DNA from: Escherichia coli
Lineage (GTDB): Bacteria; Pseudomonadota; Gammaproteobacteria; Enterobacterales; Enterobacteriaceae
DNA: 64,000 nt
NCBI RefSeq assembly: GCF_050920415.1
Contig: NZ_CP169309.1
Strand: one strand, 5' to 3'
Positions within the stretch are counted from its first letter, which is position 1. Every line of letters starts with the position of its first letter. Below are positions 43,632 to 60,488 of the stretch, in pieces. Under the pieces are notes generated by a model. That model did no database searches. It was given only the letters and a program-made list of their open reading frames with translations, and had not been told where the DNA came from. The position numbers and the translations under genes are program-made.

Positions 43632-43679
43632 AACTCAATCCTTAGTCTGATGAACTTGACTTCCGGCATTGCAGGTTTC

Positions 43680-43800
43680 GCTTGCCTTTCGTTTCATTTC
43701 ACTTGGTGATTCGTTTCGTTGATTAAAATCTATAGAAAAGAAATCGAAAGTTCAATGGAGAAAAAAGAAATAAAACGAAATTTGTGATCGTTGAAAGAAA
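43680..43800 (-). promoter_or_regulatory. agaS promoter region with AgaR (DeoR-family) operator repeats
   Basis: CTTTCGTTTCATTTCACTTGG plus further TTCGTTTCGTT and AAACGAAAT repeats, matching the published AgaR operator pattern TTTCRTTTYRTTTY. Confidence 0.6.
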
Positions 43801-43982
43801 AGACAAGGGAAGATTAAAGGATTGCGTGATGACGTCGCTATGTGTACCGATTGCTGGAAGCGGCGTACCGTTAGAGCGGATAAGACGCGCCAGCGTCGCA
43901 TTCGACACCACTGCACAGATTAAAACGAAAGAAAAAGAAAGGCCTTACGGGGGAAGTGAAGGCCCAATAAAGGAGCAAATCA

Positions 43983-45116
43983 TCAAAACGAAGCTAATTG
44001 ACCCTGAATCCAGATTTGTTGCACATGCAGTCCGCTATCCAGCGCAACGACGCTGGCGCGTTTGCCCGGTTTAAGTGATCCCAAAACACCATCAACACCC
44101 AGCATTCGCGCCGGATGCAGCGACGCCATATGGATGGCTTCCGCTGGCGTTACGCCCGTCAGCTCGACCATATTGCGAACAGCCGCATCAACAGACAGCG
44201 TACTGCCCGCCAGTCCACCGGACGCGGTACGGACAACGCCGTCGTGCATCTGCACCTCTTCACCACATAACGTATAGCGACCATCCGGCATCCCGGCTGC
44301 CTGCATCGCGTCGGTGATGAGCACGATTCTCTCTTTCGCACAGCAACAACACAGCGACATCGCCGCCGGATGTACATGATGACCATCGGCTATCAGTTCC
44401 AGCCAGGCGCGCTTGTCCGTTAATCCTGCGCCAACCATTCCCGGTTCGCGGTGATGTAAACCTGTCATCCCGTTATAGCAATGCACCAGGCCGTCGGCAC
44501 CAGCGTCAAACGCGGCGCGGGTTTGTTGCCAGGTTGCTGCGCTATGTCCCAGCATTACCCGCACGTTCTGCTGTTTAAGATGACGAATGGCTTGTAACGC
44601 GCCCGTTTTTTCCGGTGCCAGCGCCACCACGCGCAAGGTATGCCGTGAAACAGCAATCAATTGATCCAGCTCGGCAATTTCCAGCTCGCGAAACAGCTCC
44701 GGCGGATGTGCGCCTTTATTCTGCGGCGTGAAGTACGGTCCTTCGAGATAACTCCCCAGCACTTGCGCACCAGGTCCACCGCGCTGGCAGCGTAGAGCAA
44801 TACGTTCCAGCGCCGCATGAATGGTATTAAGCGGCGCGGTTACGGTAGTCGGCAACCAACTGCCGACACCTTCCCGTGCCTTGTGCATTGCCAGCTTGTC
44901 GAGCACATCCGGCGCGTCATCCATAACATCAACGCCCGCACCACCGTGTACATGGGTATCGATATAAGCGGGGCAGAGCAGTTCCGCATCGCGTTCAGCC
45001 ACGCCCACTGGAATCGGTTCGATTGCTGCAATTACACCGTCAGCAATATGCAACTGATGATCATCAAGCCAGCCCTCCTCAGTCAGCAGCCTTCTGGCGC
45101 GCAGAACGTGTGTCAT
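43983..45116 (-). CDS. agaA: N-acetylgalactosamine-6-phosphate deacetylase AgaA (full length)
   Basis: 377 aa from MTHVLRARRLL; NagA-like amidohydrolase. Confidence 0.9.
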   Translation of the reverse strand: MTHVLRARRLLTEEGWLDDHQLHIADGVIAAIEPIPVGVAERDAELLCPAYIDTHVHGGAGVDVMDDAPDVLDKLAMHKAREGVGSWLPTTVTAPLNTIHAALERIALRCQRGGPGAQVLGSYLEGPYFTPQNKGAHPPELFRELEIAELDQLIAVSRHTLRVVALAPEKTGALQAIRHLKQQNVRVMLGHSAATWQQTRAAFDAGADGLVHCYNGMTGLHHREPGMVGAGLTDKRAWLELIADGHHVHPAAMSLCCCCAKERIVLITDAMQAAGMPDGRYTLCGEEVQMHDGVVRTASGGLAGSTLSVDAAVRNMVELTGVTPAEAIHMASLHPARMLGVDGVLGSLKPGKRASVVALDSGLHVQQIWIQGQLASF

Positions 45117-45547
45117 ATTCCTTCCTCGACCGGACATTCTTCATGGCAGCGGCCTAACTCGTCCACCAGACTGGTCAGCCCACGGTGTCCACTCTCCAGC
45201 GCCTGTACACGGAATTCTTCACCGCTTAACCCTTCGCGCTCCAGCACCATTTCCAGTAACAGTTGCAAATTGGTGCCGGTGATCACTTCATAGCCCGGTT
45301 TTTGCATCGCCAGCGTTGAAGCCACGCGAAACGGTGTGCCGCCCAGCAAATCTGTCAGAAAAACAATGCCGTCTTCACAATCCAGTTTGGCAATGGCTTC
45401 TTCAAGCTGCGATGTAAGCAGCGCAGTGCTTGAGGTTTCCGGAAAATCAATGGCGATAAACTGCGACTGCTCGCCGAGGATTTGCTTCATTGCTTTTTCC
45501 ATGCCGCTGGCAAATCCGCCATGCCCTGTCAAAATAATACTTAACAT
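45113..45547 (-). CDS. agaF: PTS mannose-family IIA component
   Basis: 144-aa ORF MLSIILTGHGGFASGMEKAMKQILGEQ... Confidence 0.88.
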   Translation of the reverse strand: MLSIILTGHGGFASGMEKAMKQILGEQSQFIAIDFPETSSTALLTSQLEEAIAKLDCEDGIVFLTDLLGGTPFRVASTLAMQKPGYEVITGTNLQLLLEMVLEREGLSGEEFRVQALESGHRGLTSLVDELGRCHEECPVEEGI

Positions 45548-45564
45548 CTAATACCTCATTGTAT

Positions 45565-46449
45565 TTAAAGGAAATGACAGAATTTACCGACGATGCCAAG
45601 AACCACGGTAACCGCAATCAGGCGCAGCGGACTCCAGCCGCGGCGTACCAGCCAGAACATGGTCAGGGTGTAGACCAGCGGTAAGAAGGCAGGCATCAGT
45701 TTGTCGATAACGTCAGCCTGCAGCTTAACCACTGCGTCGCCCGCCGTGATTTCCAGCGTGGTGCTTAAACGAACATAGGTTGCCACCAGCGCGCCGATCA
45801 CCGTCATCCCAACGATAGACGCTGCATGGCCGACTTTTTTGGTATTCGCTTTAATGAGTGGGATCGCCGCCACGCCCATGCGGTAAGCATAATGCGCCAG
45901 ACCAAAACGCAGCCCCAGGTGTACCACGTTGAACAGCACAATAAAGACGACTGCGCCAAGAATAGAGCCTTGCAATGCCAGACTGGCACCAATCCCGCCA
46001 CAAATCGGCAGTAACGTTAGCCAGAACATGGCATCGCCAATCCCGCCGAGCGGCGCACCGACGGCAATTTTGGTGCTCTGAATACTGTTAACGTCCTGCT
46101 TAGAACGCTCCATCGCGAGGATAATGCCAATAACAAACGTCACCAGAAATGGATGGGTATTGAAGAAACCCATATGTCCCTTCATGGCGCGCGCCAGGTC
46201 GCGTTTATTAGTGTGGATCTTTTTCAGAGCAGGCAGCAGACCGTACAACCAGCCGGAAGCCTGCATACGCTCGTAGTTAAAAGACGCTTGTAACAGCATG
46301 GAACGCCAGGCGACGCGGTTGATATCTTTTTTTGTTAGCTCCGCGCCAATGCTCTGATCTTCGTATACGTTTTCATTGACGCCTGTCAGTAGTGTCTCTT
46401 CATTTTCGCTGACGTTCGGCAGGGTGGTTTGATTAGATGCCATCTTCAA
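45565..46449 (-). CDS. agaE: PTS mannose-family IID component (N-acetylgalactosamine-specific)
   Basis: about 292-aa ORF, paralogous to agaD. Confidence 0.88.
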   Translation of the reverse strand: MKMASNQTTLPNVSENEETLLTGVNENVYEDQSIGAELTKKDINRVAWRSMLLQASFNYERMQASGWLYGLLPALKKIHTNKRDLARAMKGHMGFFNTHPFLVTFVIGIILAMERSKQDVNSIQSTKIAVGAPLGGIGDAMFWLTLLPICGGIGASLALQGSILGAVVFIVLFNVVHLGLRFGLAHYAYRMGVAAIPLIKANTKKVGHAASIVGMTVIGALVATYVRLSTTLEITAGDAVVKLQADVIDKLMPAFLPLVYTLTMFWLVRRGWSPLRLIAVTVVLGIVGKFCHFL

Positions 46450-47212
46450 ATTCCTCTTTCTGTGCCGCAGGTTGAGTCGGTTCAGGAGATTTACGCAGCA
46501 GGTCGATCAGCGCCATCGCCAGCGCGGCGGCAGCAATAGCCAGCACCGGTAACTTGAGCCAGGCGGCGGCAACGAAGCCCAGGATGAAGTAGGGGATATA
46601 GACGTTTTTCATCATGATTTTCAGCAGCACGGCAAAACCGATTGCTGGCATGATGCCGCCCGCGACGCCAAGGCCGTCGATTAACCGTTGCGGCAGGACA
46701 TCAATGATGGTTTTTGCATGCTCCGCGCCGAAGTAGATAGGCAGGAAAGCGCAGAGAAAATAGAACGTGCCGAGTGCCAGCAATGCCAGATAGTTCACGC
46801 GTTCAATGCCGCGAGTATCGGCGTTCTCCGCCATCCGGTCGCAGCGGGACATCACGCCAGACATCACCGAGAACAGGAAGGTAATCCCCATCTGTACTGC
46901 GACAGCGAAAGGTACGGCGACACCGACCGCGACATCCGGTTTCACACCAGTAGTAATGGCAAATGCCGTGCCGACGATAGTTCCGATAATCACGTTAGGC
47001 GGCTGTGCGCCCGCCAGTGGTGCCAGCCCCATCCACACCAGTTCCAGCGTACCGCCGGTTAAAATACCGGTATGCAGATCGCCAAGCACCAACCCAACTA
47101 ACGGGCCGAGGACCACCGGGCGGTGCATATGGGTCAAGCCGTTAAACATATCCAGGCCAGCGATAAAGGCGATAATGCCCAACGCAAATGCCTGCAACAG
47201 ACTGATTTCCAT
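46433..47212 (-). CDS. agaW: PTS mannose-family IIC component (N-acetylgalactosamine-specific), full length
   Basis: 259-aa membrane ORF, paralogous to agaC. Confidence 0.88.
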   Translation of the reverse strand: MEISLLQAFALGIIAFIAGLDMFNGLTHMHRPVVLGPLVGLVLGDLHTGILTGGTLELVWMGLAPLAGAQPPNVIIGTIVGTAFAITTGVKPDVAVGVAVPFAVAVQMGITFLFSVMSGVMSRCDRMAENADTRGIERVNYLALLALGTFYFLCAFLPIYFGAEHAKTIIDVLPQRLIDGLGVAGGIMPAIGFAVLLKIMMKNVYIPYFILGFVAAAWLKLPVLAIAAAALAMALIDLLRKSPEPTQPAAQKEEFEDGI

Positions 47213-47718: not shown

Positions 47719-48999
47719 TTATTGGCCTTCACAGGCTGTGTGGTACTGCGCCAGGATGTCCTGAATATGGTTGATAATGAGTTCCCGTGGCGTTGGCTGC
47801 AGCTCGCCGGAGCGAACTTTCACGTATTGCAGCGGCAGGTACTGACTGATGAGCGGCAGCGGAATCGGTGAATCCGCCAGATTACGAACCAGATGAGCGA
47901 AAGCGTCATCAATCTGGCTGTCCGGCCAGTAATAGCGCACGCGATCCGAGTAGCTATAACCACGCGCCAGGCGACGTGCGTTGCCGTCACCGTGGTAGTG
48001 GCTTTGCCAGTATTCCGGGCGGTCGAGCATCACGTTTTCCAGTACCTGACGCAGACCGGAACAGGCTTTCGCTGGCACCAGTTCTTCTTCAATCGCTGCC
48101 AGTGAAAACAGTGCTTCACGCAGGGCGAAGGTCAGCGCTGGGCCAACTTTCAGAATGGAAAAGTGGTCAATCACCAGCTGGCGCAGCGATTGCGGCGTTT
48201 GATAATCGGTAGAGTGCGCTTCGAAAATCAGCGTTTCGTAGTTTTCGACCATCTGGCTTAAGGCGGTCGCTTTAGCTGGCTGATAATCAATAACGTTGGT
48301 GTGATCGAATTCGACGCCGGGTTGTACCACCAGAGCAATGATGCGTGGCCAGATGGCATTCAGACCTTGCTTTTCAAAGGCGTGACGATGGGCTTCCAGC
48401 GTGGCGCGGGCGGCATCCGGCGTGGTGACCGCCAGCTCGCTTAAGGTTTCATGCGCGCCGCCAGGTACCGGCACTTCGGTACCAATGACATAGACCAGAT
48501 CGGCTTCGCCAAAGTGTTCACGGCAGGTTTCTTCCGCGACTTTAGCCAGTCGGGCGGCGCGTTCAGCCACGATGTCATCGGTTAAGGGAACCGGATCGTC
48601 CTGACAGGACATGCTGCAATCAAGGTGAATTTTTTTGAATCCTGCCGCCACGTAGCTTTTAATCAAATCATCGGCATTGGCCATCGCCTGAGCTGCAGGC
48701 AGGTTTTGCCAGCGGTTTGGCCCCAGATGATCACCACCCAGAATCAACGCGTCTTGTGGGAAATTCAATGAGTCGGCGAGCTGACAAACAAAGCCGCGAA
48801 AATCGGCGGGTGTCATTCCGGTATAACCGCCGAACTGGTCCACCTGATTGGATGTCGCTTCAATCAGTAACGGTGTTTGGTTTGCACTGGCGTAGCGGAT
48901 TGCAGCTTCCAGCACCAGCGGGTGTGCGGAACAAACGGCATAAATCCCATTTGTTTTGCCCTCTTTGTGCTGCCTCACCATTTCTGTCAGATGTTTCAC
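47719..48999 (-). CDS. kbaZ: tagatose-bisphosphate aldolase non-catalytic subunit KbaZ (AgaZ)
   Basis: 426 aa from a GTG start ([28 protein letters not shown]...). Confidence 0.9.
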
Positions 49000-49029
49000 T
49001 TTCCTCTCCAGTTCAGATTGCTGCGATAT

Positions 49030-49247
49030 TAATCTTTCGTTTTGTTTCAGTTGATACTGCGTCATGGTGAGATAAAAATAAAACGAAAGATAATAGTTTT
49101 CTGATCTGATTCACAAAAGAAACATAATGAAAGTCACTGAAACGAGAGTAGCTTGCGTCAATGGGCAAGGTGGGCTTGCATTTGCTCAATAGAAAGGCGT
49201 TAATAGACAAAACGAAATGAAACGAAAGTTTTACGAAAGGACTTACT
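49030..49247. promoter_or_regulatory. divergent kbaZ / agaR control region with AgaR operator repeats
   Basis: CTTTCGTTTTGTTTCAG (49034-49050), AAAACGAAAG (49077-49089), AAAACGAAATGAAACGAAAGTTTTACGAAAGG (49208-49240). Confidence 0.65.
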
Positions 49248-50057
49248 ATGAGTAATACCGACGCTTCAGGCGAGAAGCGAGTGACAGGCACCAGCGAGCG
49301 ACGAGAACAAATCATTCAGCGCCTGCGACAGCAAGGGAGTGTGCAGGTTAACGATCTGTCGGCATTGTATGGCGTATCTACTGTGACGATCCGCAACGAT
49401 CTGGCGTTTCTGGAAAAGCAGGGGATCGCTGTGCGGGCCTATGGCGGCGCGTTGATCTGCGATAGCACGACGCCGTCAGTCGAGCCATCAGTGGAAGATA
49501 AAAGCGCGCTGAACACTGCGATGAAACGCAGCGTTGCGAAAGCTGCCGTTGAGTTGATTCAGCCAGGTCATCGGGTGATCCTCGATTCCGGGACCACCAC
49601 TTTTGAGATTGCTCGTCTGATGCGCAAGCACACTGACGTAATTGCGATGACCAATGGTATGAACGTAGCCAATGCACTGCTGGAAGCAGAAGGCGTTGAA
49701 CTTCTTATGACCGGCGGGCATCTGCGGCGTCAGTCGCAATCTTTTTACGGCGATCAGGCTGAACAATCGCTACAAAATTACCACTTTGATATGCTTTTTC
49801 TCGGCGTAGATGCGATCGATCTGGAGCGCGGCGTCAGCACGCATAATGAAGATGAAGCCCGTTTAAACCGTCGGATGTGCGAAGTTGCGGAACGGATCAT
49901 TGTGGTCACCGATTCCAGTAAGTTCAACCGTTCCAGTTTACATAAGATCATTGATACTCAACGTATCGACATGATCATTGTTGATGAAGGCATTCCTGCG
50001 GATAGTCTGGAAGGACTGCGAAAGGCTGGGGTTGAAGTGATTCTGGTCGGGGAGTGA
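49248..50057 (+). CDS. agaR: DeoR-family transcriptional repressor AgaR
   Basis: 269-aa ORF with N-terminal HTH and DeoR C-terminal domain. Confidence 0.92.
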
Positions 50058-50111: not shown

Positions 50112-50576
50112 TCAATGGTTTTCTTCTGTCTCTTGGGTGAGGCTTTCCCAGCCGGCAGGAGGATGTCCTCTTTTTAACATTTTACTGAATACGGTATAGG
50201 CATCTGTTTTTTTACCGTAGGTGCGCAGCGTGTTTTCATCGTTCATCCATCCCAGAATGATGACTTTCTCTTTTTCACTGTAACGAAAGAAGAGACGATA
50301 GCGACCAGCACCAAATTTTACCCGTGACCAGTCTTTATTTTTCCCAGAGCCTAACGACTTGCCATGACGGAATGCCGGTGATGATGGATTGACCGTGATA
50401 TGCTCCTCAATCACTTTATGGACCACCGCCAATAACTTTGTGGCAGCTTTTCTCTGATAATTTTCAGGATCTTTTCCCTTTAATGCCTCGACTTCGGCAA
50501 CTAAAGCATCGTAGGTTTCCTGAAAACAGGGATGAGCATATAGCGCCCAACCATTAACCCTTTGTGGAAAATCCAT
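50112..50576 (-). CDS. yhaV: type II toxin YhaV (ribosome-dependent mRNA interferase)
   Basis: 154-aa ORF MDFPQRVNGWALYAHPCFQETYDALVAEVEALKGKDPEN... Confidence 0.9.
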   Translation of the reverse strand: MDFPQRVNGWALYAHPCFQETYDALVAEVEALKGKDPENYQRKAATKLLAVVHKVIEEHITVNPSSPAFRHGKSLGSGKNKDWSRVKFGAGRYRLFFRYSEKEKVIILGWMNDENTLRTYGKKTDAYTVFSKMLKRGHPPAGWESLTQETEENH

Positions 50577-50911
50577 TATTCGTCGTCGCCAATCTCATCG
50601 TCAATGTTGACGTCCATGCCAGCGACAAGTTTCTTTCCTTGTTGAATGTCGAATGGACGAGTTTTTTGCGGGTTATTCTGGATATCTGCATCCAGAAAAC
50701 GCAAAAATGCATTCATAGTATGATCCTCCTGTTCATCTCCCAGTCGGCACATAAATACTTGCCCACCAGGCAGAATTTCGTAATGAATGCTGTCCAGGCC
50801 TGGCTTCAGTTTTAAGGCCTCACGCACTGGCGCGGGGATAGTTGTTTGTCCGCGTATCGTGACCTTTGATTCAGTGGTCAGTACAGCGTTAGAGCGAGCA
50901 TTAGCGGGCAT
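50576..50911 (-). CDS. prlF: antitoxin PrlF (SohA), AbrB/SpoVT-type
   Basis: 111-aa ORF with acidic C-terminus; stop overlaps yhaV start by 1 nt. Confidence 0.9.
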   Translation of the reverse strand: MPANARSNAVLTTESKVTIRGQTTIPAPVREALKLKPGLDSIHYEILPGGQVFMCRLGDEQEDHTMNAFLRFLDADIQNNPQKTRPFDIQQGKKLVAGMDVNIDDEIGDDE

Positions 50912-60312: not shown

Positions 60313-60488
60313 AAATCAGGGTTTATGCTGATTTATATACTTTAACTTATTGATATATAAAAGAATTTAATTGATACAGTGATATCCAGAAAAGTATTGA
60401 AAGTTAATTTGTGAGTGGTCGCACATATCCTGTTCATTTCATTTTGATACACTTCATGCCGTCAATGAGGTTATTAACGTAGGTAGTT

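Follow-up and report, generated by a model that had tools for sequence, protein, structure and literature searches.

The divergent kbaZ/agaR control region of an Escherichia coli aga regulon and its candidate AgaR operators

The short gap between the divergently transcribed genes kbaZ and agaR in Escherichia coli contains a series of T-rich repeats, which raises the question of whether these repeats are operators of the repressor encoded next to them, elements kept for some other function, or simply low-complexity DNA. The gap studied here covers positions 49000 to 49247 (248 bp, 36% GC) of a 64,000-nt stretch of E. coli DNA (RefSeq assembly GCF_050920415.1, contig NZ_CP169309.1), referred to below as the window. 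The original prediction, made from the sequence alone, described this gap as a divergent kbaZ/agaR control region, and the gene boundaries on both sides agree with the open reading frames and with the annotation of an identical database record. The kbaZ product, encoded by the first gene of the kbaZ-agaVWEFA operon, matches the Pfam family GatZ_KbaZ-like (E = 3e-203), and the agaR product matches HTH_DeoR (E = 2e-21) and DeoRC (E = 3e-55). A DeoR-family repressor, AgaR, is encoded directly beside its candidate operators. Taken together, the evidence presented below makes it very likely that the gap corresponds to the divergent control region already known from the E. coli N-acetylgalactosamine (GalNAc)/galactosamine (aga) regulon, with the T-rich repeats serving as AgaR operators. 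The features discussed are collected in Table 1.

TABLE 1 Features of the kbaZ/agaR control region and related boxes upstream of agaS (window coordinates)
Feature	Position	Strand	Basis
kbaZ (agaZ) coding sequence	47719..48999	-	GTG start at 48999; open reading frame list and translation, PGAP annotation of identical record, Pfam
kbaZ Shine-Dalgarno GGAGAGG (- strand)	49003..49009	-	Sequence reading; nearly invariant in 77 orthologous regions
Candidate AgaR operator O1, AATCTTTCGTTTTGTTTCAGTTGA	49031..49054	+	14-nt core with 0 mismatches; 3 mismatches to 24-nt consensus; PWM 26.3 bits; conserved
Putative kbaZ -10 element CAGTAT	49054..49059	-	Conserved block ATACTG and geometry relative to CRP-like site
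Candidate AgaR operator O2, core CTTTCGTTTTATTTT	49070..49093	-	14-nt core with 0 mismatches; top PWM match, 29.3 bits; inverted repeat of O1
CRP-like site, core TCTGATCTGATTCACA at 49100-49115	49097..49118		One mismatch to TGTGAN6TCACA; almost invariant in 77 species
Candidate AgaR operator O3, TGACTTTCATTATGTTTCTTTTGT	49113..49136	-	One mismatch to 24-nt consensus; PWM 24.7 bits; conserved
Sequence-variable spacer between kbaZ-promoter and agaR-promoter modules	49137..49171		Column identity mostly 10-40%
agaR promoter -35 element TTGCAT	49176..49181	+	-35 box GGCTTGCAT in PMC2760140; conserved block
AgaR-like half-site CCTTTCTATTG (CCTTTCTTTT in most species)	49187..49197	-	Conserved; inside agaR promoter spacer; putative AgaR binding
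agaR -10-like element GTTAAT/TTAATA, weak	49199..49205	+	Conserved block GTTAATAG 17 bp after TTGCAT; placed from mapped start
agaR transcription start	49209 (about ±1 nt)	+	PMC2760140; transferred from K-12, identical here except base 49207
AgaR operator O4, AAACTTTCGTTTCATTTCGTTTTG (tandem pair of the original prediction)	49208..49231	-	0 mismatches to 24-nt consensus; PWM 28.4 bits; conserved
Extra CTTTCG unit, Escherichia-specific	49234..49239	-	Seen in window; unconserved outside Escherichia
agaR coding sequence, DeoR-family repressor, 269 aa	49248..50057	+	ATG start at 49248; annotation of identical record
agaS-upstream boxes	43684-703, 43764-83, 43924-43	+, -, -	PWM 25.3, 23.8, and 20.8 bits; 24-nt consensus with 0 and 1 mismatch
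Weaker agaS-upstream box	43733-52	-	PWM 15.1 bits

A 451-bp query across the site (48900 to 49350) was found in 5,317 of 5,426 complete E. coli genomes and was 100% identical to E. coli strain MFDS1022581, in which the flanking genes are named kbaZ and agaR. At least 99% identity to the same stretch was seen in just 14 of 5,321 E. coli records, nearly all others falling between 95 and 99%; at the kbaZ/agaR locus, the window therefore represents an allele or lineage that has been sequenced less often. Compared with K-12 MG1655, 244 of the 248 gap bases are identical. Since the four differences (at 49020, 49095, 49187, and 49207) spare the repeat cores, experiments performed in K-12 transfer directly to this strain. 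A window position subtracted from 3327913 gives the K-12 coordinate (NC_000913.3), which puts O1 at 3278859-3278882, O2 at 3278820-3278843, the CRP-like site at 3278795-3278816, O3 at 3278777-3278800, O4 at 3278682-3278705, the agaR start at about 3278704, and the putative kbaZ start at about 3278867. Unlike K-12, the strain has the complete agaZVWEFASYBCDI cluster: agaW, agaE, agaF, and agaA are intact at 43983 to 47212, whereas only agaW and agaA pseudogene remnants are left in MG1655. The agaA gene is called "nagA" by PGAP in the identical record. agaR is followed directly by the prlF-yhaV type II toxin-antitoxin pair (50112 to 50911), which is encoded on the other strand. A 100-aa open reading frame on the minus strand (49013 to 49315) runs across the entire control region, antisense to the start of agaR; composed mostly of operator and promoter sequence and unannotated in the identical record, it is probably spurious.

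The repeats themselves are not what base composition would produce. Four exact copies of AAACGAAA/TTTCGTTT occur in the gap, at 49035-42 (-), 49081-88 (+), 49210-17 (+), and 49220-27 (+). Since the gap is A/T rich, chance was assessed locally, with 5,000 dinucleotide-preserving shuffles of the 248-bp gap itself. None of the 5,000 reached four copies of AAACGAAA (mean, 0.06). Repeats had been predicted at 49034-49050, 49077-49089, and 49208-49240, and the exact copies bear this out. Over the whole window, AAACGAAA occurs nine times, four of them in the kbaZ/agaR gap and three more upstream of agaS. A longer 14-nt core, TTTCRTTTYRTTTY, has exact matches at 49035, 49075, 49209, and 49214 and a single-mismatch match at 49119, so that the CTTTC-headed core is perfect at O1, O2, and O4 and one mismatch away at O3. 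A repeat finder run on the same sequence paired 49032-47 with 49076-91 as an inverted repeat (16 nt, 94% complementary, 28 nt between arms) and returned 49076-89 as a direct repeat of 49215-28 and 49120-32 as a direct repeat of 49210-22.

Two motif scans covered the window. The first used a 24-nt sequence, WRMMTTTCRTTTYRTTTYNYTTKK, which we take to be the AgaR consensus published by Ray and Larson. Five matches with three or fewer mismatches were obtained (0.2 expected), all in the kbaZ/agaR or agaS control regions. O4 and an agaS site (43683 to 43706) match this sequence perfectly, and O2 has five mismatches to it, all outside its perfect 14-nt core. The second scan used a position weight matrix (PWM) trained solely on non-Escherichia orthologous copies of O1 to O4. 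Its seven best matches were, in order, O2, O4, O1, 43684-703, O3, 43764-83, and 43924-43, with scores from 29.3 down to 20.8 bits; the best score elsewhere in the window was 12.6 bits, and the maximum in shuffled windows was 18.0 bits. All three of the top seven that lie outside the kbaZ/agaR gap are in the agaA/agaS gap, which took no part in the training. Within 64 kb, AgaR-type boxes are thus confined to the kbaZ/agaR gap (49031 to 49231) and the agaA/agaS gap (43684 to 43943). The original prediction had proposed a motif scan as a check; the scans recovered its boxes and added a further site at 49113 to 49136, here called O3.

The agaA/agaS gap (43632 to 43982) is the known agaS promoter region, and the box closest to agaS points the opposite way from the rest. 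Weak AgaR-box look-alikes, GTTCATTTCATTTT, scoring about 7 bits, are also present in the tdcR/tdcA promoter region (60386 to 60450). The tdc matches are probably due to chance, their scores being below the shuffle maximum. The same promoter region contains a good CRP-type palindrome, TGTGAGTGGTCGCACA, at 60410-25.

To follow the repeats beyond E. coli, a scan with the AgaR protein, taking one genome per species, yielded 80 Enterobacterales loci, including Escherichia, Klebsiella, Citrobacter, Enterobacter, Salmonella arizonae/diarizonae, Yersinia, Serratia, Buttiauxella, Cedecea, and Mixta. kbaZ is divergent from agaR in all 78 loci in which both gene starts could be aligned. The gap is 245 to 251 bp long in 75 of 78 extracted regions, even though about 35 bp in its center are unconserved in sequence. 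An alignment of the 77 distinct gaps served as a phylogenetic footprint. In window order, the conserved blocks are the kbaZ ribosome-binding site, O1, ATACTG (49054-59), O2, the CRP-like site, and O3, followed, after the unconserved spacer (49137 to 49171), by GCTTGCAT (49174-81), the half-site (49187-97), GTTAATAG (49199-206), and O4. All four operators are conserved together with agaR across the 77 distinct gaps. The 12-mer CTTTCRTTWYRT has a density of 13.3 per kb in the orthologous gaps versus 0.015 per kb in the flanks (~900-fold), and exactly four such boxes are present in 43 of 76 gaps.

Spacing between the blocks is conserved as well, in a particular pattern. O1 and O2 are 55 bp apart in 70 of 77 species and O2 and O3 are 44 bp apart in 77 of 77, while on the agaR side 75 of 77 keep 32 bp between the half-site and the CTTTC of O4. 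The distance from O3 to the half-site, in comparison, varies between 59 and 66 bp among the 77 species. Spacing is fixed within each promoter half and variable between the halves.

These results bear on an alternative in which AgaR plays no part: the repeats would be A/T-rich, low-complexity sequence arisen by chance, or they would be bound by some other protein (a nucleoid-associated protein or another sugar regulator, for example). The composition of the gap (36% GC) and the weak look-alikes in other A/T-rich promoter regions, e.g., those of about 7 bits at tdc (60386 to 60448), are compatible with such an origin. However, no local shuffle in 5,000 matched the observed count, the 64-kb window has the motif in its two aga control regions alone, 77 species conserve it together with agaR, and binding and repression by AgaR have been published. 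We consider this alternative extremely improbable.

Direct evidence for AgaR at this locus comes from several studies. AgaR binds the agaR, kbaZ, and agaS promoters; GalNAc induces Pz 5-fold and Ps 20-fold; deletion of agaR leads to constitutive agaA and agaS in E. coli C; and the likely inducer is GalNAc-6-P, for which the evidence is indirect (PMC3668189). AgaR has also been described as an autoregulator that represses agaZ and agaS by direct binding (PMC4694137); on these points, both papers refer to Ray and Larson 2004. A RegulonDB-derived AgaR matrix gives 12-mers such as CTTTCTTTTTAT (PMC2760140), which are the same type of box as the operators in the gap. Table S3 of PMC8667592 gives CTTTCGTTTCATTTTCGTTT (CTTTCGTTTCATTT(T)CGTTT), described there as "from PkbaZ," as the sequence bound by AgaR. 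This sequence corresponds to O4, read on the minus strand from 49228 to 49209 (CTTTCGTTTCATTTCGTTTT): the first 14 nt are identical, and then one T differs. The position of that T in CTTTCGTTTCATTTTCGTTT compared with the genomic CTTTCGTTTCATTTCGTTTT reflects either an intended change or a copying error in the supplementary table. In a synthetic promoter, the site conferred AgaR-dependent repression from +1 or from -61, but never above about 10-fold (PMC8667592); occupancy of a single site alone may be insufficient for native repression. A full-text literature search for AgaR operator strings, promoter names, and ChIP-exo or DAP-seq data returned nothing useful, largely because the word "agar" swamps the matches, and a PDB search returned no DNA complex of AgaR's family, the sole solved relative of AgaR that it yielded being the DeoR C-terminal domain (7L6L).

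The original prediction that AgaR represses both its own gene and the kbaZ operon is therefore well supported by published binding and repression, conservation in 77 regions, and recurrence of the box upstream of agaS. Its count of "at least three" operators was correct but low, since the gap holds four full operators and a half-site. The AgaR operator is a box of ~20 to 24 bp in which TTTYR units recur every 5 bp, CTTTC stands at the head, and another TTTC/TTTT follows 10 bp later. The boundaries given for each of O1 to O4, and contact of the protein with each unit, are predicted from this pattern.

On the kbaZ side, O1 overlaps the putative kbaZ transcription start, O2 overlaps the putative -35 region, and the two together form an inverted repeat around the putative core promoter. 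O3, which was missing from the original prediction, abuts the CRP-like site. The agaZ promoter reportedly requires cAMP-CRP. Across the whole window, TGTGAN6TCACA-type matches are no commoner than expected by chance. The conserved CAGTAT on the minus strand, a plausible -10 element, would imply a kbaZ start near 49046, which would put the CRP-like site at about -61.5, a class I position. No kbaZ start site was found in the published maps consulted: the supplements of Kim 2012 are without aga entries, and Mendoza-Vargas 2009 gives the agaR start alone. The start, -10, and -35 elements of kbaZ are accordingly given as putative, as is any interplay with CRP. Within the otherwise variable spacer, 10 bp upstream of the CTTTC of O3, lies TGAAACGAGAGT (49138 to 49149), an Escherichia-specific partial AgaR box that is 92% identical to 49218-29.

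The overlap of operators with promoter elements also allows a reading in which only a subset of the repeats, for example O4 and O1, are true AgaR sites, with O2 and O3 kept as promoter or UP-like elements or as flanks of the CRP site. O2 coincides with the putative -35 region and O3 with the flank of the CRP-like site, so their conservation could have other causes, and O2 is a poor match to the presumed 24-nt consensus outside its core. Against this, O2 is the top PWM match and a 94% inverted repeat of O1, O3 is one mismatch from the 24-nt consensus, and the same type of box is found three to four times upstream of agaS, in a different promoter context. We regard it as quite unlikely that O2 and O3 are conserved for reasons other than AgaR.

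For the agaR promoter, the evidence is fairly direct. The transcription start of agaR was placed 39 nt upstream of the start codon (-39) by 454 sequencing (frequency, 3), no more than 1 nt from that of the known promoter agaRp, whose -35 box is GGCTTGCAT (PMC2760140, Table S1). With the start at about 49209, O4 covers -1 to +23 of agaR. Two plus-strand promoters called by a consensus scan at 49051-79 and 49067-94 are ruled out as the agaR promoter by the mapped start; they are look-alikes inside A/T-rich operator DNA. O4 is the conserved part (49208 to 49231) of what had been predicted to be a tandem pair reaching 49240, and this part of the claim holds; the last CGAAAG (49234 to 49239) is unconserved outside Escherichia. 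The corresponding CTTTCG unit overlaps the agaR Shine-Dalgarno sequence AAAGGA (49236 to 49241). We know of no previous description of the conserved half-site in the agaR promoter spacer. An Rfam scan of the gap for structured RNA gave subthreshold noise alone (MIR5298 and Phe_leader, far below gathering scores).

This arrangement suggests how repression might work. The kbaZ side would present AgaR with three operators at fixed spacing together with a CRP-like site. AgaR on O1 would cover the putative kbaZ start (about -8 to +16), and on O2, inverted with respect to O1, it would cover the -35 region, while O3 would abut the upstream edge of the CRP-like site. With operators placed over the kbaZ start, the -35 region, and the CRP flank, bound AgaR would exclude RNA polymerase and would probably hamper CRP. 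On the agaR side, AgaR on O4 would block initiation or escape, resulting in negative autoregulation, and the half-site between the -35 and -10 elements may have a role as well. The inducer, thought to be GalNAc-6-phosphate, would release AgaR from these sites.

It is possible, though on the doubtful side, that this scheme extends further, with AgaR oligomers bridging the two modules (O4 and the half-site with O1 to O3) by a DNA loop that couples autoregulation to operon repression. DeoR (an octamer) and GlpR (a tetramer) act through multiple operators and looping. Several operators lie 95 to 195 bp apart within the one gap, whose length is held at 245 to 251 bp in 75 of 78 regions despite an unconserved middle, and an isolated site represses weakly (PMC8667592). 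On the other hand, the distance between modules ranges from 59 to 66 bp among species, a difference of up to two-thirds of a helical turn, and neither the oligomeric state nor the cooperativity of AgaR was found in the literature search. In E. coli, the core centers of O1, O3, and O4 are 84 and 95 bp apart, near whole helical turns. Strict helical phasing between modules was rejected as a requirement, since the variable distance across species leaves phasing unsupported. A more specific form of the idea has two rigid modules (O1/-10/O2/CRP/O3 and -35/half-site/-10/O4) separated by a spacer under no sequence constraint and with a loose limit on its length, with one AgaR oligomer bridging them and the half-site serving as an extra contact; we consider it unlikely. 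If bridging does occur, agaR autoregulation and kbaZ repression would switch together.

The analysis shows the control region of this strain's aga regulon to be intact and normally wired. AgaR operators of the aga regulon were already known, and the region is an ordinary case of textbook-type gene control. The refinements made here (the fourth operator O3, the half-site, the lack of conservation of the last CGAAAG, the position of O4 at +1 of agaR, and the two-module architecture) are useful for annotation and unsurprising. A map derived from conservation, on which the agaR promoter, the CRP-like site, the four operators, and the half-site are placed, could guide motif-based annotation of the AgaR regulon in other Enterobacterales, and fixed modules joined by a flexible spacer represent a modest, testable refinement.

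The closest known system is the set of aga regulon operators of K-12 (PZ, PR, and PS; Ray & Larson, Mol Microbiol 2004), with the same locus, repressor gene, divergent layout, and agaRp start. The control region itself is not different; the difference is that agaW-agaE-agaF-agaA, lost in K-12, is intact here. GlpR likewise is a DeoR-family, sugar-phosphate-responsive repressor with several ~20-bp tandem operators, including some at divergent promoters, that acts along with CRP. However, GlpR operators are described as palindromic half-sites, whereas AgaR boxes are direct repeats of TTTYR with a 5-bp period and CTTTC at the head. The deo operon likewise has multiple promoter-overlapping operators for an oligomer of the DeoR family, but the DeoR operator is generally known as a 16-bp palindrome with long-range looping among three operators, in contrast to the spacing between AgaR modules, which is not strictly phased. 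UlaR, at ulaG/ulaA-F, is similarly known as a DeoR-family repressor that acts with CRP on the divergent region of a phosphotransferase system (PTS) sugar regulon; there, the operator has another sequence, the gene for the repressor lies outside the divergent pair, and IHF takes part.
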